64,000 nucleotides of DNA from IMG/VR virus record IMGVR_UViG_3300023174_009216; one strand, given 5' to 3'. Under the pieces are notes generated by a model, which worked only from the letters and a program-made list of their open reading frames with translations, made no database searches and was not told the DNA's origin. This document shows positions 143 to 41,570 of the stretch, in pieces. The DNA is from a virus. Taxonomy: Duplodnaviria > Heunggongvirae > Uroviricota > Caudoviricetes. The translations under genes were made by a program, and so were the position numbers. The stretch's first letter is position 1. Each line of letters opens with the position of its first letter.

Positions 143-562
143 ATGACAAAAAAAATCTGGATAAATGGAACATTTGATGTCTTACATATAGGACATCTCC
201 ATTTAATTAAAGAAGCTGCTAATCTTGGCAGTGTTAAAGTTGGGATAGATTCAGATCAAAGAGTGAGAGAATTAAAAGGAGAATCCAGACCTATCAATTC
301 AGAGAATGACAGAAGAGATTTTTTACTAGCAATCAAAGGAGTTGATTCAGTTGAGATTTTTAACACAGAGGATGAGCTAATAGATTTGATAAAATCATAT
401 TCACCTGATTGCTTTGTTATAGGGAATGATTACACAGAGAAAAAAATTATAGGAATAGAACATGTTAAAGAAATAGTATTTATACCAAGAATAAAAAACT
501 ATTCAAGCACAGAAATAATATCAAAAATAATATCTAATGAAAAAAGTATTGGTGATAGGTGA
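143..562 (+). CDS. Cytidylyltransferase-like nucleotidyltransferase, HldE/RfaE domain II-like (heptose 1-phosphate adenylyltransferase-like)
   Basis: 139 aa ORF. N-terminal GTFDVLHIGHLHLI matches the HxGH nucleotidyltransferase signature. Size fits stand-alone RfaE domain II. 26-nt overlap with the downstream kinase ORF. Confidence 0.65.
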   Translation: MTKKIWINGTFDVLHIGHLHLIKEAANLGSVKVGIDSDQRVRELKGESRPINSENDRRDFLLAIKGVDSVEIFNTEDELIDLIKSYSPDCFVIGNDYTEKKIIGIEHVKEIVFIPRIKNYSSTEIISKIISNEKSIGDR

Positions 563-1289
563 ATTTGGTATTGATAGATTTGTTTATGGAAATATAGAAA
601 GACTAAATCCTGAAGCACCCACACCTATTTTAAACATCAAAGAGATGAAGGAGAATTGGGGAATGGCAGGTAATGTCTACAAGAATCTAGAATCACTTAA
701 TAAATTTAATCTTGGATTTGTTTCCAATTATGAGCCGGCAATAAAAACAAGATATGTTGATTCTAAATCAAACTATATTCTTCTAAGAACAGATGTGAAT
801 GATAATATAGAAAGAATTGCAAATATTGATGAAGATTATATTTCAAAATTTGATGCTGTGGTAATATCAGATTACAATAAAGGTTATTTATTAGAGGATG
901 ATATAGTTAAAATAGCTGAAGCATCTAAGATGTCTTTTATGGACACTAAAAAGCCATTAGGAAATTGGTGCAAAGGAATTAACTGGATTAAGATAAACGA
1001 GAAAGAAGCACAGAATCCTAAACATCAGGAAGGATTTTTTTATCTTCTTAAAAAATCTCTTATAGTAACACTTGGCGGAGATGGAGCTTTATACAATGAT
1101 AAAAAATATCCAGCGGATAAAACAAATGTTATGGATGTTGTTGGTGCGGGGGATACATTTATATCAGCATTTGCATGCCATATAATGGAAGGAAATAGCG
1201 TTGATGAATCCATTATGTTTGCTAACAAGTGTGCTTCTGAAGCTGTAAAGAGAAGAGGTGTAACACTATTGAGCGAAGTGTTAAAATAA
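537..1289 (+). CDS. PfkB-family sugar kinase, HldE/RfaE domain I-like (heptose 7-phosphate kinase-like)
   Basis: N-terminal VLVIGEFGIDRFVYG..ERLNPEAPTPIL resembles the RfaE-I N-terminus. C-terminal DVVGAGDTF is the PfkB signature. Confidence 0.7.
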   Translation: MKKVLVIGEFGIDRFVYGNIERLNPEAPTPILNIKEMKENWGMAGNVYKNLESLNKFNLGFVSNYEPAIKTRYVDSKSNYILLRTDVNDNIERIANIDEDYISKFDAVVISDYNKGYLLEDDIVKIAEASKMSFMDTKKPLGNWCKGINWIKINEKEAQNPKHQEGFFYLLKKSLIVTLGGDGALYNDKKYPADKTNVMDVVGAGDTFISAFACHIMEGNSVDESIMFANKCASEAVKRRGVTLLSEVLK

Positions 1290-4295: not shown

Positions 4296-4658
4296 TTATC
4301 TTTTAGGAAGTTTATACTTGTCTACTATTTTATATAGGTTATCTAGGCTTAAATAAATGAAAAGATATATGCTTGGACTGGTAAACGTGCTACTTCCTAT
4401 TTCCCCTTTTTCCTCAGCCCAATCCGCACGATGATTATATTCATATCGATCTATCACAACATTATGTGTGTTGAGAGATATATGGTTTTCTATATAATCT
4501 TCAGCAGATAATTCTTCGTGTGTTTCCCTTATCATACCTTTTAGAATATCAACATGATACGAATCGGAGAGAACTAAGGCATCTTTAAAAAGCTGTTTCA
4601 ATACTTCTATGTTCTCGATATGAGACAGATGAAAAAAACCGTTCCAATTATTTCTCAT
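4296..4658 (-). CDS. hypothetical protein
   Basis: 120 aa ORF. Confidence 0.45.
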   Translation of the reverse strand: MRNNWNGFFHLSHIENIEVLKQLFKDALVLSDSYHVDILKGMIRETHEELSAEDYIENHISLNTHNVVIDRYEYNHRADWAEEKGEIGSSTFTSPSIYLFIYLSLDNLYKIVDKYKLPKR

Positions 4659-5736
4659 TCAATAAAAATTTATTAGATATTGCTTTAAAACTAATTGATC
4701 TATCATATGAGCGTACAACTACACCCTCTCTATCAAATTCTGGGTTTAATACTGATTTACTGTCTGCATATTTAATCATATCTTCAATTGTATCGGGTAA
4801 AAGAAATTCAGTTTCAATAATAGGAACAGTTTCCGCTACTATTGCATGTTGTATAGTTGCAAGAAACATCGGTAAACCATAATAACTCCTGCTATCAATA
4901 TCAAACACATTAAAGAACTTAACAGTATGACCTTTTATTTTATATGGATTTCCCTGAATTCCTTCTCCGATAAGTTCGCCCTGCAGAGAAATATTTTTTC
5001 CATATGCTTCTAGTTTTTCTTTAATCCTCATCTCCCTTGCAACCTTCCAGAATGTATTACCTTCGGTTTCAAGTAAATCTAGGTTTCTTGAACAAACCCC
5101 AAACTCCCCATCTTTCCAATAGAAAGTAGCGGAGCTTCCATCTAGTTTTTCAGTCACATAGAACTGATGCTCTGAAGATATCTTATATTCGGCATACTCT
5201 TTAGATAAATTCTGAACTCTCTCCTCGTCTGTCTTTCTTAAGAAACTTGGGAAGCTGCCTTTAACTTTACCTGCAAGTTCTGCAGGGATTGGAGGCTCAT
5301 ATTTAACGATATGTAACCAGTCTGTAACATCTGTTCCCTCTTCAATCACCAATGCATCATCATAAGGACCAAGTTGTAATTGATCCCCCCAAGGTTGTTG
5401 GCTGATGCCTATTTTCATTTCTTCCCCTTTTTCTAATACTGAAAGTGGCAATATTAAGCCTTGTGAAATTTGTCCCCTCAAGCGGATTGTTTTAAGTCTG
5501 AATCCTTCTTGATCCCCCATTTTCTTATAAGAACTTTTTCTTAAAAATTCAAACTCTGGTTCAACAGGTAAAAAAGAGTCAATTTCACAATAGACTACTA
5601 GATCTCCAATTTCGTGTCCTACATTTTTTGCTACTACTACTTTCCAGCCATCTACAATAGCTAGATCAATAGAATCTGCGCCTTCTATAGGTTGGATATC
5701 AGAGATCCTCCTAAGGGTAGCTAATTTTCTTTCCAT
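4648..5736 (-). CDS. ATP-dependent RNA ligase-like nucleotidyltransferase
   Basis: Candidate motif I TEKLDGSSATF (KxDG lysine adenylylation motif) around residue 195, preceded by an N-terminal domain as in Rnl5/DraRnl-type ligases. Family assignment tentative. Confidence 0.5.
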   Translation of the reverse strand: MERKLATLRRISDIQPIEGADSIDLAIVDGWKVVVAKNVGHEIGDLVVYCEIDSFLPVEPEFEFLRKSSYKKMGDQEGFRLKTIRLRGQISQGLILPLSVLEKGEEMKIGISQQPWGDQLQLGPYDDALVIEEGTDVTDWLHIVKYEPPIPAELAGKVKGSFPSFLRKTDEERVQNLSKEYAEYKISSEHQFYVTEKLDGSSATFYWKDGEFGVCSRNLDLLETEGNTFWKVAREMRIKEKLEAYGKNISLQGELIGEGIQGNPYKIKGHTVKFFNVFDIDSRSYYGLPMFLATIQHAIVAETVPIIETEFLLPDTIEDMIKYADSKSVLNPEFDREGVVVRSYDRSISFKAISNKFLLNEK

Positions 5737-8176: not shown

Positions 8177-8872
8177 ATGAAAACTATAACCATTGTAATA
8201 CCCTGTAAAAATGAAGGATATCTAGTTATAGACACATTAAAATTTCTTATCAATCAATCCATATCTTTTAAAATTATAATTGCAGACTCATCCGATGAAG
8301 AAAGCAGTATACTTCTTCTTAGAAAGTATCAAAAGATTTATTCCGAAAGAATCCAAATAATACCTGGAGGATTACCTGCAATAGCAAGAAATAACGGGGC
8401 AAAGCTAGCCGAAAGCGATTATCTTCTTTTTTTAGATGCAGACATACATATTTATGATAAACATCTGGTTGAGGAATGCTTAAATATAATATCCAAAAAA
8501 GATTATGATCTTGTCACATGTAAAATGAAAACATTAACAGGAGAACATAATTGGGTTTATAGAATATTTGATTTCTTCCAATGGCTAAGTTCTTTAAGCA
8601 AGCCTTTTGCTTTAGGTGGCTTTATGCTATTTAAAACAGAGACATTTAGAAAATTAAACGGATTCAATGAGAAAGACAAGATTGCTGAGGATTATCATCT
8701 TAGTTCGAAGATTAATCCCAGAAAATTTAAGATCCTTGATTTATATGTACATACTCCGAATAGAAGATTTTCTAAGAAGGGCGTGTATTATATGATTAAA
8801 CTAGCATGGAAAAGCTGGATCAATCGTAATAATGATGAATTTTTCCAAAAAGATTATAACTACTGGTCATGA
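8177..8872 (+). CDS. family 2 glycosyltransferase
   Basis: IVIPCKNEG N-terminal GT-A motif and FLDADI DxD motif. Confidence 0.65.
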   Translation: MKTITIVIPCKNEGYLVIDTLKFLINQSISFKIIIADSSDEESSILLLRKYQKIYSERIQIIPGGLPAIARNNGAKLAESDYLLFLDADIHIYDKHLVEECLNIISKKDYDLVTCKMKTLTGEHNWVYRIFDFFQWLSSLSKPFALGGFMLFKTETFRKLNGFNEKDKIAEDYHLSSKINPRKFKILDLYVHTPNRRFSKKGVYYMIKLAWKSWINRNNDEFFQKDYNYWS

Positions 8873-8963
8873 TAAAAAGAAGTAAGGTTAATATACCATT
8901 TCAAAAAATAGTATTGCTAACTCTAGCTGTACTTATTCTATTAATAGAAATAGCTATTAACAT

Positions 8964-9710
8964 ATGAAATCAGATTATAAAGCAATCATAGTTTCAGATT
9001 TACATCTTGGAACTAAAAACTCACAAGCTAAAGAGTTTATAAACTTCTTAGAGAATCATTCCACTGATCTATTGATTCTTAATGGCGACATCATAGATGG
9101 ATGGGCACTGAATAGAGGATCCAAATGGAAAAAGTCTCACACTAAAGTTATTTCTAAATTACTAAAGATCTCAAATAAAACTAAAATAATTTGGATCAGA
9201 GGCAATCATGATGAATTCATATCTGAATTTATAGGTTCAAGATTCGGAAACATAGAAATAAGAGAGGATTATGTACTAGAACTATACGAATGGTATAATG
9301 ACAAATACAATCCCAAACATTATTATGTTTTCCATGGCGATGTGATCGATGTTTTTATTACAAAATATAAATGGCTATCTAAAATAGGGTCTATGGGATA
9401 CGATCTAGCTCTATGGGTAAACAGATGGTATAATAAATACAGATTATGGAGAGGACTTCCATATCAATCAATCTCTCAAAAAATAAAATCAAAGGTCAAG
9501 ACTGCAACTAACTATATCAATGACTTTGAAAGTGCAGCTGTTAAAATGGCCAAGAAAAAAAATTGTCATGGAGCAATCTGTGGACACATTCACAATCCAA
9601 TTGATTTGTATATTGAAGATGGTCATTACCTTAATTCAGGCGACTGGATAGAAAATAGAACTGCTATTTTCCTAGACCATTCAAATAACTTTAGTATAAA
9701 GGAATTTTAG
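8964..9710 (+). CDS. calcineurin-like metallophosphoesterase (LpxH-like)
   Basis: Motifs SDLHLG, GDIIDGW, GNHD and GHIH in the canonical order for a metallophosphoesterase. Confidence 0.6.
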   Translation: MKSDYKAIIVSDLHLGTKNSQAKEFINFLENHSTDLLILNGDIIDGWALNRGSKWKKSHTKVISKLLKISNKTKIIWIRGNHDEFISEFIGSRFGNIEIREDYVLELYEWYNDKYNPKHYYVFHGDVIDVFITKYKWLSKIGSMGYDLALWVNRWYNKYRLWRGLPYQSISQKIKSKVKTATNYINDFESAAVKMAKKKNCHGAICGHIHNPIDLYIEDGHYLNSGDWIENRTAIFLDHSNNFSIKEF

Positions 9711-17475: not shown

Positions 17476-17919
17476 TTACCAATTAGGTTCCATCCCGTAT
17501 CCTTTTATAGGTAGATATTTAGATGCTATTTTATATTTTGTTTGTGGATTCATTATCAACGCAATCTCTGATAATAACCTAGCTTCTCTTTTTCCTAATT
17601 CTCGACCTTTCGTATTCCATTCGTCATTCTTCAAATCGTAGTAAATATATAAGGTTAAATCCATAGATGGTTTAATATATGTAACAATGACCCTATCTAT
17701 ACTGGATTTATCATAATTCAGTTGTATCTCTATATCTGAGAGTGTTCCATCTAGGAATGGCTTATCCATATAATTATAGAAGTGTGTTTTTAATAATTCT
17801 CCTGCTCTACCTGGCTGACCTTGCGACACAGCAACATCAGCGGCACTTTTAATTGTCTCAGATGATATCTCGTTTAATTCTCCAGGAACGAAACTTTCGA
17901 ATACTTTAATGTGCTTCAT
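17476..17919 (-). CDS. putative capsid-targeted (CTS-like N-terminus) protein
   Basis: MKHIKVFESFVPGE N-terminus. A TATAAATA octamer lies 11 nt upstream of the ATG on the coding strand (T4 late-promoter-like; may be chance). Confidence 0.55.
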   Translation of the reverse strand: MKHIKVFESFVPGELNEISSETIKSAADVAVSQGQPGRAGELLKTHFYNYMDKPFLDGTLSDIEIQLNYDKSSIDRVIVTYIKPSMDLTLYIYYDLKNDEWNTKGRELGKREARLLSEIALIMNPQTKYKIASKYLPIKGYGMEPNW

Positions 17920-17966
17920 GACTATTTTTTTATTTATATATCCAAGTTATCTTATTAAATTATTTT

Positions 17967-18890
17967 TTAGGTAAATTTAAAGGTATCTTTACCTATTTTT
18001 ATTCCTTTCGTAATTTGATCGTATAAAGCTTTATTTATACCTTTACTGATATCTCCAAAATATATAGCGTTATTACCTGTTCCTTCAGTTGCCCGCCCTG
18101 CTGTTAAAATAGCTCTTTGAGTCATGTTTCCGTAGTTTCCTGTAGCAGCAGGTATATTCAAATATTTTAATTCGATTAGTTTATTCTGAAGATCTGTTAT
18201 GTATTTGCCATCAGATCCTTTATCTGTTGTTCCTATTGGTATATAGGCTCTTTTCGGATCTTTAGTTTCATCGTTAACAAATGGACTACCCTTATATGGC
18301 TTCATCTTATACTTATTCTTAATAAAACTGTCAATGATTTTTCCATTAGAACAACTCCATGTTGAATCTATCCACTTTGCATTCTTAGAATCAGGACCCA
18401 TAGAATTACTTCCTGCCATTAAAGATTTTGATTTACCGTTAGGATAGTAACGAACAGTACCTTGTGAAGTTCTGGTTGTAAACATATCAATAATACCATC
18501 ATTATCGGTATCTTGTGGAATATATTTTTGAAAATCCTGTTTTGTTATACATTCAAATTTACCTAAAAATCCTGGATCATACTTGTATTTATCTTTAGTG
18601 ATATAGTTAGGTGTTGGTGCTTGATCTACCTTTCTATATTCACCACCAATATCTTTATAATATCTTAGAAAATTAATATCCATGAATGGCGACTTAAACC
18701 CGCTTCTGTCCATTTTATCCTCTACTTTTGGAAATCCTGCAGACCATAATTTTTCATCATCATTTCTATTTTCAGTACCATCGTAAAGGGATTTCTTCAC
18801 CATGGTCGGTAATTTATTAAAATCTATAACAGGTGCTGTTGATGCCTCTGATACTGAGCTAAAATTTTCGAAAACTTGTAAATACTTCAT
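17967..18890 (-). CDS. putative capsid-targeted protein with C-terminal peptidoglycan-binding-like domain
   Basis: MKYLQVFENFSSVSE N-terminus. C-terminal DGKYITDLQNKLIELKYLNIPAATGNYGNMTQRAILTAG matches the PG_binding_1 pattern (LQ..L..LGY...G.FG..T..A). Confidence 0.55.
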   Translation of the reverse strand: MKYLQVFENFSSVSEASTAPVIDFNKLPTMVKKSLYDGTENRNDDEKLWSAGFPKVEDKMDRSGFKSPFMDINFLRYYKDIGGEYRKVDQAPTPNYITKDKYKYDPGFLGKFECITKQDFQKYIPQDTDNDGIIDMFTTRTSQGTVRYYPNGKSKSLMAGSNSMGPDSKNAKWIDSTWSCSNGKIIDSFIKNKYKMKPYKGSPFVNDETKDPKRAYIPIGTTDKGSDGKYITDLQNKLIELKYLNIPAATGNYGNMTQRAILTAGRATEGTGNNAIYFGDISKGINKALYDQITKGIKIGKDTFKFT

Positions 18891-18906
18891 ATTGTTTAAA
18901 TATTTA

Positions 18907-19332
18907 TTATGCTATATCTTCTCTTTTATCCCCTTGAATAAGGCCTTTATCTTTTGTGTATGTGGTATTAGTAGCTAGTCTATCAATAAGTTGATCGTAT
19001 AATTTTTTATCTACTTTTTGACCCTTCTTATATATGTCGCTATTATTCATTTCTAATCCTGCATCAGTCATGGGACCAAAATAACCAGTAACTAAATTTT
19101 TACCTTTGCTACTCACAAGGCGCATTAATTCCTGTAATGCCTTAACCTTTTCGTTGTTTCTCATTCCCTTTTGGATAAACTCTGTAGATCCCCATGTAAT
19201 ACTTTTTGCGTTTTTATACAAAGAGCTTACTGAGCTTGAGAGATTTGATGTATTTATTGGATTTGATGGGGTTACTGGGCGTCCATCTTCATTCAGATCG
19301 CTCCATTTTTCGAAAACTTGTATATGCTTCAT
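18907..19332 (-). CDS. putative capsid-targeted protein with peptidoglycan-binding-like segment
   Basis: MKHIQVFEKWSDLNE N-terminus. VKALQELMRLVSSKGKNLVTGYFGPMTDAGLE resembles PG_binding_1. Confidence 0.5.
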   Translation of the reverse strand: MKHIQVFEKWSDLNEDGRPVTPSNPINTSNLSSSVSSLYKNAKSITWGSTEFIQKGMRNNEKVKALQELMRLVSSKGKNLVTGYFGPMTDAGLEMNNSDIYKKGQKVDKKLYDQLIDRLATNTTYTKDKGLIQGDKREDIA

Positions 19333-19395: not shown

Positions 19396-19821
19396 TTAGC
19401 CTATTTCATCTCTATTGACTTGTCCATAGTTAAATGCTCTTTGTCTGTACATTGCTTCGTCCAATATATCCAAAGCAGCAGGTAATGCCGCTCGGTCATC
19501 TAAGAAGTGGTTACAATAAGGCTTGCTTCCTTTTTGTCCATAAGGCAATTCAATAGGAGTTTGGTTGATTGAATCTACCTTGATTCCAATCTTATCACAG
19601 TACTCCATTATATACTGGTGTCTGTCCTCGTTGCACGCGGTGTGTATCACGGTGTAGCAACCAACCCCTTGACAATCTTTAAGAAGCTTGATTGTTCTAT
19701 CAATATCTTCTTGGTTATCCAATGTGTGATAGGGCGAGATTGTTGAATCAAAGTCAACCCCTATAATAATTTTACCGTGGGATTGCCACTCATTAACTAG
19801 TCTGTCTACGTATTTTTTCAT
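19396..19821 (-). CDS. HAD-superfamily phosphatase (possible nucleotidase)
   Basis: Motif I IGVDFDSTI (DxDxT). Start chosen at the internal ATG giving MKKYVDR, because the track ORF extends upstream into the neighbouring gene. Confidence 0.55.
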   Translation of the reverse strand: MKKYVDRLVNEWQSHGKIIIGVDFDSTISPYHTLDNQEDIDRTIKLLKDCQGVGCYTVIHTACNEDRHQYIMEYCDKIGIKVDSINQTPIELPYGQKGSKPYCNHFLDDRAALPAALDILDEAMYRQRAFNYGQVNRDEIG

Positions 19822-20266
19822 GAAAGTGTTTTTTAAATTCGTCAAGTGATTCAAATAATGGAATGTTATATTTATTGCAAACGATATCAACGTTACCTTT
19901 GCGCCAGAATCCATTAGGACATACCACATATAAATTTTTATTGGATGCATGTAAACCTAATTCCATCAGGCTAATCGGAGACATCGTTTCTGGTACCAAG
20001 TATAATAAGATATGATCTGCTTTTTCAAGTGCATCCAGTTCCCAATTTACTTGTTGGTAGAATTGCGGGTTTTCAAACTCTTGAGTCCAGGAGTTATTCC
20101 AATCTTTTCTTCTTGGATTAAATGAACCTATACCCATTTCTAAAAAGTATTGTGTCATGTCTGACTGCCAATCTTCGGATTTTCCCATTTCGATCGAACC
20201 GGCCAGAAAAACATATTCTTTTGACTTGTCTCTCCGTGCAATGTTCTGTGGTGGTGTGTATATCAT
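19793..20266 (-). CDS. nucleoside 2-deoxyribosyltransferase-like (DNPH1/Rcl-like) protein
   Basis: YVFLAGSIEMG...W near the N-terminus resembles the N-deoxyribosyltransferase/Rcl family motif (YFCGSIRGG). 157 aa. Confidence 0.45.
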   Translation of the reverse strand: MIYTPPQNIARRDKSKEYVFLAGSIEMGKSEDWQSDMTQYFLEMGIGSFNPRRKDWNNSWTQEFENPQFYQQVNWELDALEKADHILLYLVPETMSPISLMELGLHASNKNLYVVCPNGFWRKGNVDIVCNKYNIPLFESLDEFKKHFHEKIRRQTS

Positions 20267-20279
20267 TGTTTATTTTAAG

Positions 20280-20819
20280 TTATCTTAAAGAATTATAAAT
20301 CGATAAAACTTTTGGAATGTATAATTTAGTATGGGCTTTAGCGTACATTTTTTCTGCAAATAGACCGTCAGCATTATATCTATCAATTATCCATCTCTCC
20401 TCCCCTATGATATCGCTTTTTACTAAAAAGTTATGACTATCTATTTGATATAACTGGACATTTTCACCTGATAGTCTAAGACTCCCATCTTTTTCATTTT
20501 GCATAAAATGAATTATATCATGGTTAAGGTCTTTAATATTTTCCCAAAGATCTGGATGAATCTCTGTATCATCATCATTAAAATATACCCATCCATCAGT
20601 TATCATGCCTATTGCATAATTTCGTTGGCCGTGTCCCACTGTACTATTTTCTACCCGGATTGCATATGCCTCGCAGTTAGTTGGAATATTTTCAGGAACT
20701 GAATCAGCATCAAATACTACGATCCATCTATATCTTTCCCTTGGGATGCTCATTATACTTTCAGAAACTTTATTCAAATTTTGGGGTCGACTGCAAGGTG
20801 TTATTATATTTAAAAACAT
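20280..20819 (-). CDS. hypothetical protein (possible glycosyltransferase-like, DxD motifs)
   Basis: 179 aa with VVFDADS and FNDDDTE acidic motifs. Confidence 0.35.
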   Translation of the reverse strand: MFLNIITPCSRPQNLNKVSESIMSIPRERYRWIVVFDADSVPENIPTNCEAYAIRVENSTVGHGQRNYAIGMITDGWVYFNDDDTEIHPDLWENIKDLNHDIIHFMQNEKDGSLRLSGENVQLYQIDSHNFLVKSDIIGEERWIIDRYNADGLFAEKMYAKAHTKLYIPKVLSIYNSLR

Positions 20820-20821
20820 AT

Positions 20822-21031
20822 TTATATTTTATTTTCTATAAATTCTTTGTAAAGCAATTCCCAATCGTCAGATAAATAATTCTTTTCACCTAGCCATTTA
20901 AAGACATCCTTGATTGTAAAACCATTAACTGATTTGGTCATTGTTTCTTTGTATTCTTGCGAACTGCCTGAAAACTCATGACCACATTGACAAGGTGTTG
21001 ACCAGCATTCTGTGCAATCTGATAGTGCCAT
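20822..21031 (-). CDS. small Cys-rich protein
   Basis: 69 aa with CTECWSTPCQCGH. Confidence 0.35.
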   Translation of the reverse strand: MALSDCTECWSTPCQCGHEFSGSSQEYKETMTKSVNGFTIKDVFKWLGEKNYLSDDWELLYKEFIENKI

Positions 21032-21041
21032 AAATATTATT

Positions 21042-21290
21042 TTAACTTTTAAATATTAAAAAATTTCCATCCCTTTGATCTGAGCGCCAAGCGACATCTC
21101 TCCAACCAGCCTTTGTGTATCTTTGATTAAGAACGCTAAAATGACTCGTGCTCATTCCATCAGGAACCTCTATAGTAACAATTCCACCATTTGCCAATTT
21201 ATGGCAGGATAGTTTTGAATCTATCTTTTTTTCATAATCTGCAACTTCCGCTAAGAAGTTTTCGTTTAATAACTTTGGTCCGATTGCCAT
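21042..21290 (-). CDS. hypothetical protein
   Basis: 82 aa ORF. Confidence 0.4.
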   Translation of the reverse strand: MAIGPKLLNENFLAEVADYEKKIDSKLSCHKLANGGIVTIEVPDGMSTSHFSVLNQRYTKAGWRDVAWRSDQRDGNFLIFKS

Positions 21291-21291
21291 A

Positions 21292-21771
21292 TTAAAGTGT
21301 TTTTAATTCTTGCTTAACTAACGTAAGTGCTTGTCCTAGAAGGTTTAATCCTAACCAAAAAGATGGATTATTAATACCTTCGGCATCTTCTGCTAATCCT
21401 ATTCCCCAGATGTGGTCCAAAGGTGATGCCTCTACAAACACCTTATCTCCTGTTTCTAGCATTTGTTCTTTAAGGTCTTGGTTCTGACTGAACTTAGCTA
21501 GATTACCTTCGTATACAATTGACAAGCAATTCTTATCCCAGGTGGTTTTGTCAAAGTTTTTAATCATTCTACCAAATCTTTTTTGTTCTCTGGGATTTGA
21601 TTCTTGCATGATTTGTTCAGCGATTTCTGTGTCGCCAAATAGCAAGGCTTTCTGATGCATCATGTATTGTTCGCATGAGTTGTATTCACGGCCATCGATG
21701 GTCATGTTAGCTTTATGCCATTGGGAATATATCCCATTCCAAAAAAATACGTAGTTGTCTGTTATTTTCAT
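21292..21771 (-). CDS. NADAR-domain protein (YbiA-like N-glycosidase)
   Basis: FFWNGIYSQWH...SCEQYMMHQKALLFGD...RFGRMIKNFD...EASPLDHIWGIGL follows the NADAR (DUF1768) pattern. Confidence 0.7.
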   Translation of the reverse strand: MKITDNYVFFWNGIYSQWHKANMTIDGREYNSCEQYMMHQKALLFGDTEIAEQIMQESNPREQKRFGRMIKNFDKTTWDKNCLSIVYEGNLAKFSQNQDLKEQMLETGDKVFVEASPLDHIWGIGLAEDAEGINNPSFWLGLNLLGQALTLVKQELKTL

Positions 21772-23273
21772 TTTAAACGATTTTTAATTTCAGTTAATGT
21801 TGTTGGATTTTCAAATTGACCATTTAAGTAGATAGCTTTTAAAATACCCTTTCCTTCTTGCTCCCATGATAACTTATCTTCAAGTCTAAGAGAATCATCA
21901 CCATTTAAGAATACACCTAATAATCCTGTTGCTGATTTCTTCATGCCATCATCTGTGATTGGATCTTTAAAGATTTCTCTAGCTTCACCATTCACTTCAA
22001 CATAAGTTGCTTTCATCGCAAAACCAAATGTGTCACGAGTATTGAATTGATAGGTGAATGAACCAACACCCAATACAATGTTGGTACTTGCAAATCCTTT
22101 AGCTTCTAATCTAGTACAGATTTCTTCTGCTCTATCAATTGTAATACTATCACCATAGATTGCTCCGATATGTGGGTCAAGAACCTTGTAACCTTGTTCG
22201 TTAACTGTACCACCGAATACATCCCAAAGTAATTCAATAACACCTTTATCATCAGGATTTAACCCTGATATTCTAGATTTATTAAAATCAAATTCCCCTT
22301 TATTTTCCCATACTATTTTACCACAAATAATATCAACTGGATTACCAGAGTCAGGGCGTATTACCAATTTGCCATCACGAGCTAGAATTTGTTCCTTAAA
22401 TCTTGGAAGATATACCGTACAAATGTCCCAAAGATTGAACGTATCTGAAACCATACTCAAAATTCCTGTTGGGTATGTTTTTAAAAGATGGGTAATATAT
22501 GAAGTTTCATCAATTTTTCCATCGACAATGTTCATATGTGCACAAGCTACACTATGTTCGGTGGCATTCACACTACCACCAACGAATCCTGTTTCACCAT
22601 AATACTTTCTAGCACCACCGATAGCTGGTAATGAATCTGTACCTGAGAATGATGTCAAGTGACCAAGCCCTGAACTTATTGTGGCATCAATTGAATCCAT
22701 ACCTCTCATTGAGAAGTCATGTCCTTGCCAGTCAACAAACCAAGCTCTTTCCTTATCAGTTTTTTCTTGCCATCTGGTAAGAACTTTACGATATTGGTGA
22801 GCAATAGTTGCAGATGTCATTGGCTTCCATAAAAGATTTGAAATGATTGTTTCAAGATAATTTGTTACCCAATAGAAATCAGGATGTGTGTTATAGATAG
22901 TCAGTACAGGAACTCTCATTGGTACTAAAGTTCCTTCTTCGATTATCTTTACATGGATGGGTAAATATCCTAAGTCATGTAGTTTTTCAAAGTGGGTGAC
23001 ATCGTAGTCTGTACCTAAGTACATTGATAATTCTCGTTTCATTTCGTCGCAAACTTCTTCCTTCTGTTTTGAGAAGAATTCATTCTGGAATGCTTCATGA
23101 ATTTGTTTCATTACCATTTGCTGACCAAATGAAACAAGCTGATCACAACCTTTAGGTGCATGTCTATTGCTACGTGGTGTGAAGTTTGAATAAACTAGTG
23201 TGGTACCTTCTGGGTACTGTTGATGGTGTCCTGTTTTGTAACCATCCGTAAGCAAAAGCGGATTTATTTTCAT
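21768..23273 (-). CDS. nicotinamide/nicotinate phosphoribosyltransferase (NAMPT/NadV-like)
   Basis: N-terminus NPLLLTDGYKTGHHQQYPEGT matches the NAMPT signature (TDSYK.TH...YP). 501 aa. Overlaps the downstream NADAR gene by 4 nt. Confidence 0.75.
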   Translation of the reverse strand: MKINPLLLTDGYKTGHHQQYPEGTTLVYSNFTPRSNRHAPKGCDQLVSFGQQMVMKQIHEAFQNEFFSKQKEEVCDEMKRELSMYLGTDYDVTHFEKLHDLGYLPIHVKIIEEGTLVPMRVPVLTIYNTHPDFYWVTNYLETIISNLLWKPMTSATIAHQYRKVLTRWQEKTDKERAWFVDWQGHDFSMRGMDSIDATISSGLGHLTSFSGTDSLPAIGGARKYYGETGFVGGSVNATEHSVACAHMNIVDGKIDETSYITHLLKTYPTGILSMVSDTFNLWDICTVYLPRFKEQILARDGKLVIRPDSGNPVDIICGKIVWENKGEFDFNKSRISGLNPDDKGVIELLWDVFGGTVNEQGYKVLDPHIGAIYGDSITIDRAEEICTRLEAKGFASTNIVLGVGSFTYQFNTRDTFGFAMKATYVEVNGEAREIFKDPITDDGMKKSATGLLGVFLNGDDSLRLEDKLSWEQEGKGILKAIYLNGQFENPTTLTEIKNRLK

Positions 23274-23277
23274 ATTA

Positions 23278-24051
23278 TTATATTTTAAAATTTTTGAATA
23301 CTTTTAAGTTAGATAATTCGTAGTTATCATACTTGCTATTGGTGCAATAGATTCTTTCGTATAAGTTTTCTAATTCTTTATTGGGATTCTGTACTGTGAT
23401 ATGACTTACTGCAAGATAAAGTTTGCCTGCGTTTTTTGTTTTAAGAAGTTTAGCCAGACCTACAAATGTTCCACCATATACACAAAGATCGTCTAGTACT
23501 AATATGTCAGCGCCTTCGAAATCTTCTTTGTCAATGGTTTGTGTTAACTTATGGGTTACCAGATCTCTAGATTTGCTAGCAGAATATACACCAGCTTCGT
23601 GATGTAATGTATCAGCAAGCTTGTTTATCCATTTGAATGAACCAGCATCTGTTGATAAAAAGATAGGTTTTGATCCAATGTCTTCAAGCACATCGACAAT
23701 AAAGACCGAATTATCTATAAGCCTGCTGTTATTTAAACCCATCAGTGTTGAATCACTATGCGGATGAAAGACGTAAACCCTTACGAAGTTACACGAGTTA
23801 ATAAAATCACAAACTAATTTTAATTCGAATGATTGGTTGGTTTCAAATCTACGATCATGTTGTTGCTGGAACATACACGGGATTCTAAGAACAACATTCT
23901 GAATTTGATTAAAATCGCATATATCTTTAAGCGACTTAATAAAGAATAAATCTTCGTATGTGTTTATTCTTTCAGTGATTACTGGATCTTTGAAATCTGT
24001 AATTTGGGCATAGACTGTGCCATCTGGGTATCTGTGTCTTGTGTATATCAT
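23278..24051 (-). CDS. type I phosphoribosyltransferase-domain protein, PRPP-synthetase-like
   Basis: ADILVLDDLCVYGGTFVGLAKLL is the PRPP-binding motif of type I PRTases. Its position in a 257-aa protein suggests ribose-phosphate pyrophosphokinase. N-terminal half not confirmed. Confidence 0.5.
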   Translation of the reverse strand: MIYTRHRYPDGTVYAQITDFKDPVITERINTYEDLFFIKSLKDICDFNQIQNVVLRIPCMFQQQHDRRFETNQSFELKLVCDFINSCNFVRVYVFHPHSDSTLMGLNNSRLIDNSVFIVDVLEDIGSKPIFLSTDAGSFKWINKLADTLHHEAGVYSASKSRDLVTHKLTQTIDKEDFEGADILVLDDLCVYGGTFVGLAKLLKTKNAGKLYLAVSHITVQNPNKELENLYERIYCTNSKYDNYELSNLKVFKNFKI

Positions 24052-24236
24052 AATGTTATTTTTTCTATTTTACCGCATTTGTTGCAAATAAGTGTTTGTC
24101 TGGTTTCAATAGGCTTGGAATCCTTAGCCCTCCAGTGGACATTCTCATATATGTCTGTTGAGCTGTGTATTCTCCAATCATGATGACATGATATTTTATT
24201 TAGTATTTCTATTAATGATTTCCACATAAATTTATT

Positions 24237-25327: not shown

Positions 25328-27067
25328 CTATTTTATTTTTTGAGAGTCATCTATCCAAGGTTCTATCTTTTTCATAATTTCATCTTTTGCATCAATCATT
25401 GCCATCACACGTTCATAAATACCAGGACTTTCCTCATAGAGATTTCTCCAGGATGGGTCTTTATCCCATCTATTTTTAAAGTCCAGCATTCTTATAAAAT
25501 TTCTAATAGTTGCTTCTGCAACTTTTCCCATAAATTCTGAATCAGGACTAGGAAATATAGCATCAAATACTTCGATAGAAACCCTATTCATTAATCCACC
25601 AGCAATTCTTGGATTCGAATTCTCATTTCCCCTGAAAGCATCTTTAATGGCATTCATTTCTCTCTCCCCAGCATTTAATAAAATACCCTGTATAACAATT
25701 TTAAAGAATATTGATTTAATTTCATTAAAAGAATCATCACTAGTATATCGATAAGAGCTCTTAATAAAATTATTAACAGCTTGGCCTATATTACGGTTAT
25801 CCCTATAGAAATCATCAGTTACTTTCTTTAATGCGAATTCCTCCCTAAAAACCCTTTTGATCTCATCAATCATTTCCTGCGGGTATCCTAATCTCTTTAG
25901 CTGATCATAGTACTTCTCACCATTCTGTTTTATATTATCATTATTAATATCACTAGACGAATAAACACCTCCGTCTTCAGAGATTGTTACACCTATAAGA
26001 TGTAATTTATCGCTCTCAGGAACCCCAAAATTAAATATATTAAGTTGAACTCTTCCACCTGCGTATGACCAGAATCTGGTGTCATTAATACACCAGGTAC
26101 CTGCAATAGAACATAATCCTTTCTGAGCATCCTCTGATCTTATAGAAAGAGCTACATATTGACCATCCTCATATAAGATAGCAACCCCAGGTTTCAGGGA
26201 TTCTGCATCTTTCAATATTTTATTGATATTAGATCCCATGGATTCTATAAATTTTTCCCCAAATTTTATAAGGGATTTAATAGAATCATAAGAAGATACT
26301 CTACTAAGAAATCTTTTTTTGATTGTTTCCGATTCTTCAGCAGCCTCTATTTTGGTTGCTATGTTGATGATCTTTTGTTTATCTTCTGGTCCTGATTTTC
26401 TATATTCATCCTTAAGGTTAACAACTCTACCCGCCACATATAAAGGATTACGAGGATCTGAAGCTGCACTGGTTGGGAGTGCATCTACAAGCCATCTAGC
26501 ATCTCTTTCTTTACCAATCTCCCTTAATGCATCTTCGAGCATCTCAAATCCAGATCTAATCTCAGATTGTGAATTGACCTTTTCAATTTGAGATTTTATT
26601 CCCTCTATTCTATCTACATCACCTGATTTTTCAGATCTCATTAAATCAGATTCTAGTTTTTTTAAGGTCTCTGATTTTGGAAGAATCTTAGCATATTGCT
26701 CAATATTCATTGGAAGACTTCCAAGGAAAGGTGCATATGTTCCTAATTTATTTTTAAGAACCACTAGGTCAGGAAGAGAAACATCCTGATCAAAGTGAAA
26801 TCTAACAAAAGCATTTAACAATCCCTGCTGATCAGCAACTATAGAATTTTTAATTTCTAAATATTCTTTATTGGAAAGTATTGCTATTTCTTCTTCTTTT
26901 GTTACCTCCGATGGTTTCTTTTTAGAAAACTTATTTATCATGAAGGATTTAGCTGCCTGTACGTTCTCATTTAAGATTTTTAAATAATCTTGGTTTTCCC
27001 ATGAAGATCCTATTCTTTTTATATTTTCATTCAGAGAAAAACTTTTAAAATTCTTAATTCTTTTCAT
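25328..27067 (-). CDS. putative capsid-targeted (CTS-like N-terminus) large protein, paralog A
   Basis: Start set at ATG 27067 giving MKRIKNFKSFSLNE (the track begins at an upstream GTG). Long blocks shared with 27092..28888, e.g. RSGFEMLED...ARWLVDALP..AASDPRNPLYVAGRVVNLKD. Confidence 0.6.
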   Translation of the reverse strand: MKRIKNFKSFSLNENIKRIGSSWENQDYLKILNENVQAAKSFMINKFSKKKPSEVTKEEEIAILSNKEYLEIKNSIVADQQGLLNAFVRFHFDQDVSLPDLVVLKNKLGTYAPFLGSLPMNIEQYAKILPKSETLKKLESDLMRSEKSGDVDRIEGIKSQIEKVNSQSEIRSGFEMLEDALREIGKERDARWLVDALPTSAASDPRNPLYVAGRVVNLKDEYRKSGPEDKQKIINIATKIEAAEESETIKKRFLSRVSSYDSIKSLIKFGEKFIESMGSNINKILKDAESLKPGVAILYEDGQYVALSIRSEDAQKGLCSIAGTWCINDTRFWSYAGGRVQLNIFNFGVPESDKLHLIGVTISEDGGVYSSSDINNDNIKQNGEKYYDQLKRLGYPQEMIDEIKRVFREEFALKKVTDDFYRDNRNIGQAVNNFIKSSYRYTSDDSFNEIKSIFFKIVIQGILLNAGEREMNAIKDAFRGNENSNPRIAGGLMNRVSIEVFDAIFPSPDSEFMGKVAEATIRNFIRMLDFKNRWDKDPSWRNLYEESPGIYERVMAMIDAKDEIMKKIEPWIDDSQKIK

Positions 27068-27091
27068 TTTCACATTTATATTAATTTCATC

Positions 27092-37285: not shown

Positions 37286-38002
37286 TCAATTAAATTTTCT
37301 TTCTCTTTCCATTCTACGCAAACATTCCAAAGGAGTTTCATTTGGCAATAAATCATATCCACATCCTAGTGTTCCCCCTTTCCAACTGCCTGCTCTTTCA
37401 CCAACCTCATCATTGAAATCCACATTGATGGTTTTTCTTTTTTTAGCAAATAGAGATGTCCATTTAAACCATCTAGGTCTCCACTCTCGTTCTTCCACTC
37501 TAATAGTAGCAGTTCTCGCCTGAACTGTTCCATTCTTTAGTGTATATGTATAGGGATAGGTCCAGCTCCAAAGTATGCCATCCCACTTCTCCTTGTTATA
37601 AAATTCTTTATTTCTTCTTCCTAATTTTTCTGCTAGGAATTCATGCTCCCATTCTCCGTCCATTCTCATGCATGATGTTCTGACCCATGTTAAATCCCAT
37701 GGCATATAGATGAATTTAGTTTTCTTTCCCAGACAAAAAACAAGGGAAGTTGGAAACCATGAATCATTTGAATAAAGATAAAAACCATATTGAGGTGGAT
37801 CACACTCGTCATATTTGCTTCTAATAAACGGAATGTGAATGTAAAATTGTCCCCAACCAAGGCTGAAGGATAGCATTGCCCTGTTATCGAAATAACCCGC
37901 TGGAGCTACCTTGAAATTTAATTTCTTCCATCCTGTACAAAACTCAAACCAGTCGTTCCTATAAATTGTGTTCTCTCTGTATTTTTCTTTTCTTAGTTTC
38001 AT
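37286..38002 (-). CDS. hypothetical protein
   Basis: About 238 aa Trp/Tyr-rich ORF. Start at the second ATG to avoid overlap. Confidence 0.45.
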   Translation of the reverse strand: MKLRKEKYRENTIYRNDWFEFCTGWKKLNFKVAPAGYFDNRAMLSFSLGWGQFYIHIPFIRSKYDECDPPQYGFYLYSNDSWFPTSLVFCLGKKTKFIYMPWDLTWVRTSCMRMDGEWEHEFLAEKLGRRNKEFYNKEKWDGILWSWTYPYTYTLKNGTVQARTATIRVEEREWRPRWFKWTSLFAKKRKTINVDFNDEVGERAGSWKGGTLGCGYDLLPNETPLECLRRMERERKFN

Positions 38003-38003
38003 C

Positions 38004-38333
38004 TTAGTATAAATCTTCACTAAATAATCTGGTTTCAAAATCTATTGTGTGTCCATTTGCTTGATGAATTTGTGCTCCTTCTTCTCTATCTACAAAACGA
38101 TTCTTACTGGTAAGAAATCCCTGTACGTGTTCACCGGAACAGTCTTCACCAATTTCGCAAGTTCGTAAACCTGTTAATGAACTCATGGTCCACATACACT
38201 GTCCATGACGATGTCCTAAGATTACTAATCCTTTATCACAATTCTTTGGAAGCACCCCATCTATAATTTTCTTTAGAGGTATTTCTTTATACCATATCGC
38301 TGCGCAAAGGATGTATTCGTCTTTTGTTTTCAT
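38004..38333 (-). CDS. hypothetical protein
   Basis: 109 aa ORF. Confidence 0.4.
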   Translation of the reverse strand: MKTKDEYILCAAIWYKEIPLKKIIDGVLPKNCDKGLVILGHRHGQCMWTMSSLTGLRTCEIGEDCSGEHVQGFLTSKNRFVDREEGAQIHQANGHTIDFETRLFSEDLY

Positions 38334-40001: not shown

Positions 40002-40890
40002 TTAATTACTTAGAGGTGCTTTGATTGCTGGATGTGATTGATAGTTTTCTAATTGAAAATCTTTTGGATCTAGGTGACCATATAGAGATTGGTTTTCTGA
40101 TAGAGATTTGTAAAACTCATCTGTCTTCATGTGTTTTAATGTAGGTAATTCAAAAGGCTGTCTTGTTCTTTTCGGAATGTTAGCTTCCATAAATTCTTGA
40201 CGTTTACCATCAACCAATGCGTCCATGCCAGTTTTTTGCAGAAACTCTATTCTTTCTTCTTCCGTGTATTCTCTACCTATCTGCTCTTTAGCCTGCTCAA
40301 TGTGGTTGCTATAAAGGTGTACATCACCCAAGTTACCAATCAATTCATCAGGAACCATGTTGACTTCTTTGGCTATGATTTCAAGTAGTAATCCATAAGA
40401 TGCTATGTTGAATGGTAAACCAAGGAAGGTATCTACTGAGCGTTGATTCCACATTAATGAGATTGCTCTGGTTGGAACTCTACTTGCTCTCATATCATCT
40501 TCTTCATTTTCTAACCCTGCTTCTAAACGTTCTAAAACTACATTATTCTTTTTACACCAGTCTCTTCTTTCTTCCAAACTCAACTCTCTCGTATATACTT
40601 GAAATCCATAATGACAGGGTGGCAAAACCATTGAATCCAAATCTGAACAGTTCCAGCTATTAACCATTAATCGTCTTGAGTCAGGATTTGTTTTGAGTTC
40701 AGAGATTAGGTTTGCGATTTGGTCTATTCTATATGTTGACATTCTCATCTCTGACCTATCAATACCTCTCCAATTTCTCCACTGCTTTCCGTATATTGGT
40801 CCAAGGTCTCCAAATCGATCAGAAAATTCTTTGTTTGTTTTAATTTTTTCTACAAACTCTTCTTTAGTATAAGGCCTTCCTTCTGGGTGT
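40002..40890 (-). CDS. thyA: thymidylate synthase, 3' exon / C-terminal portion (5' boundary approximate)
   Basis: GDLGPIYGKQWRNW, MVNSWNCSDLDSMVLPPCHYGFQVY (active-site PPCH) and GDVHLYSNHIEQ match ThyA. The N-terminal ThyA region is absent from this ORF and found at 41571..41831. Confidence 0.7.
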
Positions 40891-41570
40891 AAATGTTCTT
40901 TATTCATAAGTTTATTTTTTATATTCCCATTTGTAATTTCCTGATGATTTTCTTTTTCCTTTACACACATTACATATATTACTAGCCGCTAATTTTAATT
41001 CCCTTTGTATATCTGCTAAGCTATCCCATGTTTTAATATATTCATCATTTAAAGTGTATTGGTTTATTTTAATACTAGAAAAATGCAATACCCCAATTTT
41101 TTCAAACATACCATGATTCTCTCCAGATATTAAATAACCCTTGCCAAACATCGGATTGTTTTTACCGATCCTTTTACCTTTCCTGTTTTTCCTCATCAAT
41201 GATTTTGTATCTTCTGAGTGTTTACCGTTGCTACCTGGATCTTTTATATTCAACATTTCAAATTCACAATCTTTATATTGTTGCCAATAATATATCTCAT
41301 AATCATTTAGAATGGTTTGTGATACATCTTTTGGAAGTATTGTAAGAATTTGAAATTTATGATTTTCCCATCCGTATTTAATTATTGAATTATATAGCTT
41401 TTTTTGGCGACTGCAATGAGTTTTTTCATATTGATTAATTCTCCTTCTAATACACCAACTTTGGCCTATATAAATTTTATTTGTTGGGCTAACGATTTTG
41501 TATATTGCTATCATCAATCCTTATTTTGTTTCTCTAATCTTTCGCACTCTTTCAAATAAGCTTGATAACA
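40891..41570 (-). mobile_element. putative group I intron (or intervening mobile insertion) carrying a GIY-YIG homing endonuclease ORF within thyA
   Basis: ThyA N-terminal and C-terminal coding parts are separated by about 680 nt that encode a GIY-YIG/NUMOD protein. Architecture mirrors the T4 td intron with I-TevI. Splice sites not determined. Confidence 0.5.
40912..41514 (-). CDS. GIY-YIG homing endonuclease with NUMOD3-like motifs
   Basis: AIYKIVSPTNKIYIGQSWCIRRR...H (GIY-YIG core) plus GKRIGKNNPMFGKG and GENHGMFEK repeats. ATG at 41514 overlaps the TGA of the upstream thyA reading frame. Confidence 0.75.
   Translation of the reverse strand: MIAIYKIVSPTNKIYIGQSWCIRRRINQYEKTHCSRQKKLYNSIIKYGWENHKFQILTILPKDVSQTILNDYEIYYWQQYKDCEFEMLNIKDPGSNGKHSEDTKSLMRKNRKGKRIGKNNPMFGKGYLISGENHGMFEKIGVLHFSSIKINQYTLNDEYIKTWDSLADIQRELKLAASNICNVCKGKRKSSGNYKWEYKK

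Follow-up and report, generated by a model that had tools for sequence, protein, structure and literature searches.

A predicted NARP1-type NAD+-reconstitution operon with candidate accessory enzymes in a metagenomic phage genome

The DNA analysed here, referred to as the window, is a stretch of 64,000 nucleotides from a virus of the class Caudoviricetes (IMG/VR record IMGVR_UViG_3300023174_009216). We examined a minus-strand gene block at positions 19396-24051 that encodes a protein resembling phosphoribosyl pyrophosphate (PRPP) synthetase (Prs, or PRPS), a protein resembling nicotinamide phosphoribosyltransferase (Nampt), a NADAR protein, a protein of Pfam family PF15891 and a phosphatase of the HAD superfamily. 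In our reading this block is a NARP1 operon for NAD+ reconstitution by the phage, extended by accessory enzymes, and we assign this reading a probability of about 0.75. Confidence is higher for the core, as the adjacent and co-directional Prs-like and Nampt-like genes very probably form the NARP1 pair Adps and Namat, by analogy with homologues in which the reaction steps have been shown. NARP1 occurs in ~4% of sequenced phages.

The block comprises eight tightly packed open reading frames (ORFs), and a 59-aa ORF at 24048-24227 on the same strand abuts it upstream. Across 24227-19396, neighbouring genes overlap by up to 29 nt or are separated by up to 13 nt, with 4-nt overlaps between the 59-aa ORF and Adps and between Namat and NADAR, and a 4-nt gap between Adps and Namat. 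No minus-strand terminator-like sites were found inside the array by a promoter and terminator scan, which performed no better than on shuffled sequences and is uninformative on operon boundaries. A first-pass annotation of this DNA, made from the sequence alone, had described five consecutive genes. All five are present within the block and their domain assignments hold in Pfam, PHROG and NCBIfam, but three further ORFs (82, 69 and 179 aa) lie between the NADAR and PF15891 genes. An independent gene call on the source contig returned the same genes.

The probable Adps and Namat gene pair

A gene annotated as Prs beside one annotated as Nampt is a pattern known from phage Bas63, in which the predicted reactions were not the real ones (Osterman et al., 10.1101/2024.02.11.579819). 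Adps does not make PRPP; it pyrophosphorylates ADP-ribose (ADPR), and Namat forms NAD+ from the product, ADPR-PP, and nicotinamide (10.1101/2024.02.11.579819; PMC12774641; PMC13586617). Work on the Bas63/SPbetaL1 pair detected no product of a PRPP synthetase, and rescue by the pair did not depend on host pncC or nadR (10.1101/2024.02.11.579819). The corresponding events during infection by the window phage would begin with bacterial NADase defences (SIR2, TIR, DSR and similar) splitting NAD+ into ADPR and nicotinamide. Adps would then use ATP to pyrophosphorylate ADPR at its 1'' position, giving ADPR-PP, and Namat would displace the pyrophosphate with nicotinamide and so regenerate NAD+. The first-pass annotation had envisaged a phage-encoded source of PRPP for a Nampt that consumes it, an idea that finds no support, as the homologous pairs of Bas63, SPbetaL1 and ICP1 were shown to work otherwise. 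Its broader proposal of an NAD+-centred counter-defence module of the NAD+-reconstitution kind is supported by the assignment of Adps and Namat, which draws on scores, diagnostic residues and gene context.

The 257-aa protein (23278-24051) would be the first NARP1 enzyme, with a predicted activity as ADP-ribose pyrophosphokinase. It matches Pribosyltran (PF00156) at 29.3 bits and phrog_619 at 3e-44. The first-pass annotation had left room for some other phosphoribosyltransferase here. PF13793 (Pribosyltran_N) gave no match, and the protein is PRPS-like across two domains, aligning over both in TIGR01251 (positions 29-274 of 309). It nevertheless falls below all NCBIfam PRPS cut-offs (66.1 vs 113 for TIGR01251 and 65 vs 296 for another model). 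The comparison with ICP1 Adps gave 75 bits and 28% identity, and that with E. coli Prs gave 42 bits and 22%; identity to characterised Adps enzymes is only 27-29%. A profile HMM built from 69 Namat-adjacent Prs-like proteins scored the window protein at 241.5 bits and E. coli Prs at 96.9 bits. These comparisons used the ICP1 and SPbetaL1 Adps sequences; the PDB sequence search, whose entries did not include the ICP1 Adps structures, retrieved cellular PRPS only. The alignment stops before the C-terminal segment of E. coli Prs, showing that the PRPS regulatory helices (alpha11-alpha12) have been lost.

Residues conserved in the window Adps are H98, D135, K160, D187/D188 and F69, which correspond to H121, D161, K185, D212/D213 and F92 of ICP1 Adps. 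Mutating K185, D212/D213, H121 or D161 in the ICP1 enzyme lowers or abolishes activity, and the Lys, Asp-Asp, His and Asp catalytic positions are invariant in 70 of 70 Adps family members. Four positions vary in the window protein, namely Y8 (ICP1 F18), Q64 (R87), V191 (D216) and Y192 (G217). In ICP1 Adps, the adenine of ADPR is contacted by F18, R87 and F92, and Asp216 lies in the PP-loop. D216 is also missing from the validated SPbetaL1 Adps.

The 501-aa protein (21768-23273) is in all likelihood Namat, the predicted nicotinamide ADP-ribose transferase and second NARP1 enzyme. It matches NAPRTase (PF04095) at 125 bits, together with NAMPT_N. Its best PDB matches are the SPbetaL1 Namat structures 9W5X/9W5W (E = 1.5e-153, 515 bits), far ahead of mammalian Nampt (1.4e-59, 205 bits), and it shares ~50% identity with Namat of the experimentally validated phages SPbetaL1 and FADO. 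The first-pass annotation had considered that catalytic residues might be lacking. They are retained, with H240 and R306 both kept and R306 aligned with SPbetaL1 R306 and human R311; the R306A mutation abolishes the activity of SPbetaL1 Namat (PMC12774641). The adenine-clamp residues are also kept as R37 (SPbetaL1 R40), F406 (F392) and F410 (Y396). In SPbetaL1 Namat the clamp consists of the SCL residue R40 and the SCH aromatics F392 and Y396, and its combined mutation selectively destroys the use of ADPR-PP (PMC12774641). The clamp-helix segment reads 'GVGSFTYQFNTRD' in the window protein, including F406 and F410, whereas mouse Nampt has 'GSGGALLQKLTRD', with Gly and Lys at these positions. 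Both positions are aromatic in nearly all of >200 Adps-linked homologues.

Gene context agrees with these assignments. In IMG/VR loci seeded with Namat homologues, Adps was found beside Namat in 68 of the 80 loci closest to the window, in 50 of 52 SPbetaL1-like loci and in 78 of 80 ICP1-like loci. Genes for NMN adenylyltransferase (NMNAT, acting on nicotinamide mononucleotide), Nudix or macro proteins were found by Pfam neither among window ORFs of at least 150 aa nor within 10 kb on the source contig, and tblastn with eight NARP1-linked macro proteins detected no macro homologue in the 64-kb window.

Accessory genes and their neighbourhoods

The same three sets of loci were surveyed for accessory genes. 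The 80 loci closest to the window contained PF15891 genes in 39 cases, macro genes in 21, HAD genes in 16 and NADAR genes in 7. Corresponding counts were 0, 10, 2 and 6 in the 52 SPbetaL1-like loci and 2, 8, 9 and 1 in the 80 ICP1-like loci. Dereplication at 98% Namat identity left 176 loci, with macro genes in 34, PF15891 in 36, HAD in 24 and NADAR in 13. Annotation-free clustering of neighbouring ORFs in the 80 closest loci placed the accessory families at the top of the ranking, where tRNA-repair genes and an SPFH membrane protein also appeared, and other metagenome collections gave the same neighbourhood pictures. Active-site motifs are intact in the NADAR, PF15891 and HAD proteins. The three are presumably transcribed together with the core and would broaden the range of inputs to NARP1 or shield the pathway.

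Gene order is shuffled among loci with proximity retained. The window has the order Adps-Namat-NADAR-x-x-GT2-PF15891-HAD. Its closest relative, L006, has Namat-NADAR-PF15891-[GIY-YIG endonuclease]-HAD, in which the GIY-YIG gene splits PF15891 from HAD. Other loci show Adps-HAD-Namat, Namat-HAD-Adps, Adps-PF15891-Namat, Adps-HAD-PF15891-Namat, HAD-NADAR-Namat or Adps-macro-NADAR-HAD-Namat...PF15891. Two further families were seen around NARP1. A 166-aa family without a Pfam match ('MSNRTYRM.GLVPYN.SPIQQGIQFGHA...') lies between Adps and macro in 12 of 80 loci (Adps-x-[166-aa]-macro; within L037-L116, e.g., L041, L055, L058 and L060), and an SPFH/Band-7 protein also recurs.

The last gene of the array (19396-19821) encodes a 141-aa capless (C0) HAD-superfamily phosphatase, HADl. 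Its start is most likely at 19821 and not at 19950, as given by the source-contig gene call and by 141-aa homologues. The HAD assignment is based on family-level evidence because the window protein itself has no Pfam match. Four HAD motifs (D23-x-D25-x-T27, T61, K100 and D108-D109) show little or no variation across 44 homologues, and one relative exceeds the Pfam Hydrolase_3 cut-off. The AlphaFold model has a pLDDT of 94, and its top Foldseek match is the capless HAD phosphatase BT_0820 (2OBB; probability 1.0, TM 0.58/0.66). The family is small, with 142 homologues in a database of 5.8 billion proteins, all of them metagenomic.

The HAD gene was present in 27 of 212 Namat-seeded loci and stood between Adps and Namat in 22 of these 27, in both gene orders. 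Conversely, 59 of 80 HAD-seeded loci had Adps or Namat within 8 kb, 50 of them directly adjacent. Neighbourhood and fold together make a NARP1-linked phosphatase the somewhat more probable identity of this protein. It would remove a phosphate from a phosphorylated ADPR derivative, for which ADPR-1''-phosphate from aRES-type defences is the likeliest substrate and 2'-phospho-ADPR from NADP+ an alternative. A dedicated ADPR-1''-phosphate phosphatase is a tentative assignment, to which we give rather less than an even chance. An apparent mutual exclusivity of macro and HAD genes (none of the 27 HAD loci among 39 macro loci; Fisher p = 0.003) was rejected after the HAD-seeded scan, in which 6 of 80 operons carried both, for example in the order Adps-macro-HAD-Namat. 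Because the two genes co-occur in these six operons, the substrate of the HAD enzyme may be another phosphorylated form of ADPR. We also note that in locus L127 (JGI 3300073843 contig, 129.7 kb) HAD and PF15891 genes occur together with no Namat within 5 kb, and a PARP-domain (ADP-ribosyltransferase) protein is encoded 1.1 kb downstream of the PF15891 gene.

The adjoining gene (19793-20266) encodes a 157-aa protein annotated as nucleoside 2-deoxyribosyltransferase-like. This earlier call holds in so far as PF15891 (Nuc_deoxyri_tr2) matches at 108 bits; PF05014 matches weakly. Within the PF15891 family, S96-P-I-S-x-x-E102-x-G104 and N50-P-R-R53 are invariant. The PDB match is the uncharacterised 4MCJ (1e-28), and a literature search on the function of PF15891 or 4MCJ returned nothing. 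Among the structural neighbours of PF15891 are Rcl/DNPH1 and MilB, N-hydrolases of dNMP and CMP. Since a profile made from the PF15891 alignment reached only 4MCJ among PDB sequences, the putative equivalence of its Glu with the catalytic Glu of NDT/DNPH1 is based only on fold and motif. The protein is predicted to be a hydrolase or transferase for the N-glycosidic bond of a phosphorylated ribosyl compound, of which it would cleave or exchange the base. Adps or Namat lay within 8 kb in 63 of 80 PF15891-seeded loci, 34 of them directly adjacent, and an NAD-related role, suggested by neighbourhood and fold, has about an even chance of being correct.

The NADAR protein (159 aa, 21292-21771) matches PF08719 at 173 bits and TIGR02464 at 154 bits (cut-off 74), and in PDB searches 8BAU (4e-16) and YbiA (3e-6). 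The ribose-binding glutamates E43 and E125 of 8BAU, the P. nicotianae NADAR, are conserved as E34 and E114. A Glu, not an Asp or His, in the last strand marks the protein as YbiA-type and not as the His-type of T4 AdfN. Its gene start overlaps the Namat stop. We predict an N-glycosidase acting on ADP-ribose or ribosyl conjugates. All NADARs tested strip ADP-ribose from guanine in vitro (PMC11125620), and phage NADAR, macro and SLOG-type domains were predicted by Iyer et al. to process small ADPR derivatives. NADARs are frequent in large phages, and earlier in-silico work linked them to RNA repair (PMC9503650).

Among 31 IMG/VR loci with close relatives of the window NADAR, 25 had Namat within 10 kb. 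The enzyme would free ADPR by cleaving an N-glycosidic ADP-ribosyl linkage, for example that of ADP-ribosyl-guanine or of small N-linked conjugates of ADPR. That this ADPR feeds NARP1, as neighbourhood and fold hint, is possible, although we lean against it. The suggestion of the first-pass annotation that NADAR is functionally tied to the pair is plausible and gains comparative support from the neighbourhoods, the functional tie itself being something we infer. In an SPbetaL1-like NARP1 locus, an ORF that fuses NADAR with NAD synthase (NadE, PF02540; L178:9437-10639, plus strand) overlaps the end of Namat.

Alternative readings and related systems

Several observations weigh against a NARP1 operon with dedicated accessories. 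The loci sampled are the nearest relatives of the window proteins and are not phylogenetically independent. In the window, the three interposed, unrelated ORFs part NADAR from the PF15891 and HAD genes. In 7% of loci a NADAR gene lies at most 8 kb from Namat, a rate near chance outside the present NADAR clade because NADARs are common in large phages. Linkage of NADAR and PF15891 to NARP1 is not universal, since in seven cultured phages (CcrColossus, RsoM2USA, Slicko01, Erwinia SNUABM_19, Bacillus WH1, Staphylococcus PG-2021_40 and Vibrio pv27) homologues with 36-56% identity do not lie within 6-10 kb of NARP1. The association between HAD and macro genes is negative, but the two are not simply redundant. 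In related loci the NARP1 region is also accompanied by Thg1-like, CCA-adding enzyme, RNA ligase and HAD_SAK_2 genes, and part of the co-location may stem from a general region of auxiliary genes. As for the core pair, the ligand-contacting Y/Q/V/Y combination at ICP1 positions 18/87/216/217 defines a minority Adps sub-clade of about 8 in 70 members, all Namat-linked (L072, L076, L086, L089, L092, L093 and L104 among them), in which acceptor or donor handling may differ. These co-varying substitutions are the chief reservation that the sequence raises about the Adps assignment. Furthermore, Namat homologues retain about half of the NMN-forming activity of Nampt in vitro (PMC12774641), and some PRPP-dependent flux may by analogy pass through the window Namat.

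The NMN-forming activity would fit a classical, host-dependent salvage shunt, in which a true PRPP synthetase supplies a true Nampt and host NMN adenylyltransferase completes NAD+ from NMN. Pfam, PHROG and NCBIfam names indeed read PRPP synthetase and NAMPT, the two-domain PRPS fold with its catalytic Lys and Asp-Asp is common to PRPS and the 257-aa protein, and through R87Q and D216V the window Adps sub-clade departs from the ICP1 enzyme at ligand contacts. However, the same annotations were misleading for the homologous Bas63/SPbetaL1 pair (10.1101/2024.02.11.579819). The 257-aa protein is far under every PRPS cut-off, with an Adps-profile score 2.5 times that of E. coli Prs, and the Nampt-like protein, which carries the adenine clamp of Namat, resembles Namat far more than Nampt. 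The window ORFs scanned and the 10 kb covered on the source contig yielded no NMNAT gene. We consider the salvage shunt very improbable. A second alternative keeps the NARP1 core and treats NADAR, PF15891, HAD and, in relatives, macro genes differently. The tRNA-repair genes near NARP1 in related loci (Thg1-like, CCA-adding enzyme, RNA ligase, P-loop kinase and HAD_SAK_2), the adjacency of an Erwinia jumbo-phage NADAR to RNA ligase and CCA-adding enzyme genes, the in-silico link between NADAR and RNA repair (PMC9503650) and the tRNA-splicing role of Poa1p, the closest characterised relative of the macro-domain phosphatase Adpp, could all point to a tRNA/RNA-repair module. NADAR, HAD and macro proteins would then clear ADPR-1''-2''-cyclic phosphate and ADPR-1''-phosphate from Tpt1/KptA-type removal of 2'-phosphates, with NARP1 merely adjacent. 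The window has an RNA ligase gene (4648-5736), but it lies 14 kb from the block, and the surroundings of the block showed neither Tpt1/KptA nor a 2H phosphoesterase. The macro protein in the between-gene slot serves NARP1 experimentally, and HAD is inserted between Adps and Namat and not beside repair genes. This module is unlikely, if slightly less so than the salvage shunt.

A stronger competitor, although still somewhat unlikely in our view, is that a NARP1 core merely shares an anti-defence or auxiliary island with accessory genes that work independently of it in counter-defence or nucleotide metabolism. NADAR would here be an AdfN-like orphan antitoxin that removes DarT1-type ADP-ribose from phage DNA; phage NADARs of several clades neutralise DarTG1 (PMC11825919), and guanine de-ADP-ribosylation is common to all tested NADARs (PMC11125620). 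PF15891 and HAD would destroy an alarm nucleotide or modified dNMP (e.g., m6dAMP, the Metis trigger), mimicking host MisB. In the NAD+-cleaving Metis system, which NARP1 cannot counter, MisB is a HAD phosphatase acting on m6dAMP (10.1101/2025.11.05.686725), and the structural neighbours Rcl/DNPH1 and MilB of PF15891 are dNMP or CMP N-hydrolases. The NADAR and PF15891 homologues away from NARP1 in cultured phages, the adjacency of HAD to PF15891 without Namat in L127, L406 and L407, and a gene for the anti-CBASS protein Acb3 13 kb off, in a region rich in anti-defence genes, are in line with such an island. An unrelated function, however, explains poorly why HAD takes the slot between the two core genes in 22 of 27 loci, in both orders and in three divergent Namat clades, and the HAD family is tiny (142 proteins) and mostly NARP1-linked. 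MisB is a different, capped HAD (PF13419), a family that the window protein does not match, and the NADAR-NadE fusion beside Namat links NADAR to NAD+ metabolism. The NARP1 operon with accessory enzymes remains the reading we favour.

Like NARP1 of Bas63, SPbetaL1, FADO and ICP1 (NrsAB), the window has adjacent co-directional Prs-like and Nampt-like genes with the same catalytic and clamp residues and without a PRPS regulatory C-terminus. Unlike them, its Adps belongs to the sub-clade with R87Q, F18Y, D216V and G217Y, and the pair is part of a longer array with NADAR, PF15891 and HAD. Cellular PRPP synthetase and NAMPT/NadV salvage share folds and catalytic cores with the pair, whereas the window Prs-like protein is under PRPS thresholds and without regulatory elements and the Nampt-like protein has the adenine clamp. 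In NARP2 (Nampt with a bifunctional Nmnat, as in KVP40 NadV/NatV) a phage Nampt-family enzyme likewise restores NAD+. The first-pass annotation had separated the window from the KVP40 pair, correctly so, as the partner is Prs-like, an NMN adenylyltransferase gene was not found in the regions searched and the Namat clamp is present. The anti-DarTG1 NADARs of the AdfN group (T4 gp30.3, Bas32 and Bas60) are stand-alone phage NADARs with a conserved active site, as is the window protein, but the latter is YbiA-type, translationally coupled to Namat and from a clade that is NARP1-linked in 25 of 31 loci.

Two accessories, Adpp and RyDEP, are proven feeders of NARP1 (10.64898/2026.01.28.702374; PMC13232231). 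NARP1-AP (Adps-Adpp-Namat, Vibrio phage Gary) resembles the window locus in having a small phosphatase tied to Adps and Namat, and HAD occupies the same slot in relatives. Adpp is a Poa1p-like macro domain, whereas the window phosphatase is a capless HAD encoded six genes downstream of Namat, with no macro gene found. RyDEP, in the NARP1 locus of mycobacteriophage DyoEdafos, is similarly a NARP1-inserted hydrolase, which produces linear ADPR from an immune molecule based on ADPR. It is a RyR-domain O-glycosidase for 2'/3'cADPR, in contrast to the window candidates, a predicted NADAR N-glycosidase and a predicted deoxyribosyltransferase-like protein.

Taken as a whole, the locus looks like a known NARP1 core in an undescribed accessory variant, the functions of the accessories being those that we infer above. 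Our literature searches found no report that links a HAD phosphatase to NARP1 or places a HAD-fold phosphatase in the Adps-X-Namat slot, nor of a PF15891-Namat linkage or a Namat-coupled YbiA-type NADAR clade; NADAR and NARP1 were not combined beyond passing mention. We speculate that NARP1 might be extended further: the capless HAD, non-homologous to Adpp, would dephosphorylate phosphorylated ADPR from non-canonical NAD(P)+ cleavage, and NADAR and PF15891 would be further feeders. Together such feeders would turn N-linked ADPR conjugates and NAD-derived nucleotides (immune signals, DNA adducts and NMN-type products) into ADPR and nicotinamide. In this full form the proposal is doubtful.

Genomic context and implications

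The window is part of a 117.7-kb metagenome contig (ENA ERZ2680843 NODE_321, identical sequence). Its phage-like gene content includes a collagen-like tail fibre, topoisomerase II, a split DNA polymerase and the Acb3 homologue. A nucleotide search of the block against cultured phages gave only a 34-nt match, and no close cultured relative was found.

The remaining ORFs of the array are small or fragment-sized. The 59-aa ORF matches phrog_7696 (1.4e-6), homologues were absent from the related loci examined, and its membership of the module is uncertain. The 82-aa ORF (21042-21290) had no Pfam, PHROG or NCBIfam match; homologues with 46-55% identity occur near NADAR or Namat in ~10 related loci, and it is missing in L006. 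It may encode a small accessory or inhibitor protein, one candidate considered being the aRES inhibitor aRad1. The 69-aa Cys-rich, Zn-ribbon-like ORF (20822-21031) has a sub-threshold Zn_ribbon_CSL match only, with a homologue in 1 of 111 related loci. The 179-aa GT2-like glycosyltransferase ORF (20280-20819) is fragment-sized and matches Glycos_transf_2 in its N-terminal half only (27.6 bits, cut-off 23.3), with a homologue in none of the 111 loci. Because these two ORFs are near-absent from related loci and lack counterparts in L006, we treat them as probable passenger genes.

Beyond the block, a 250-aa protein (37286-38038, minus strand), ~13 kb away, matches PF25187 'CBASS inhibitor Acb3' (5.6e-51, 174 bits) and is a second candidate anti-defence gene by sequence match. 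Genes flanking the block at 17476-19332 and 25328-27073, both on the minus strand, share an N-terminal motif ('MKHIKVFESF', 'MKYLQVFENF', 'MKHIQVFEKW'; loosely 'MKMKRIKNFKSF'), which suggests a paralogous family; a 307-aa member has a weak peptidoglycan-binding match. At 40002-41517 (minus strand), a thymidylate synthase ORF (322 aa, PF00303, 1e-56) is overlapped upstream by a GIY-YIG endonuclease ORF (201 aa), which may represent a homing-endonuclease insertion. Other auxiliary genes of the window encode a PfkB-family kinase (537-1289, plus strand), an SPFH/Band-7 protein (45437-46384, minus strand), the RNA ligase at 4648-5736 (minus strand; PHA02142 OB and RNA_ligase) and, at 8177-9710 (plus strand), a GT2 glycosyltransferase followed by a calcineurin-like phosphoesterase.

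NAD+ depletion is among the commonest bacterial anti-phage strategies, and NARP1 is the principal phage response known, with the recognised weakness that plain ADP-ribose is required as input. Adpp and RyDEP are each a discovery of 2026, and the window locus and its relatives suggest three more candidate accessories. Each candidate yields a testable substrate hypothesis and may reveal further NAD+-derived defence molecules. Automatic labels of 'PRPP synthetase + NAMPT' in phage genomes should be read as Adps and Namat. If the extended form of NARP1 is true, NARP1 would work against defences that now defeat it.

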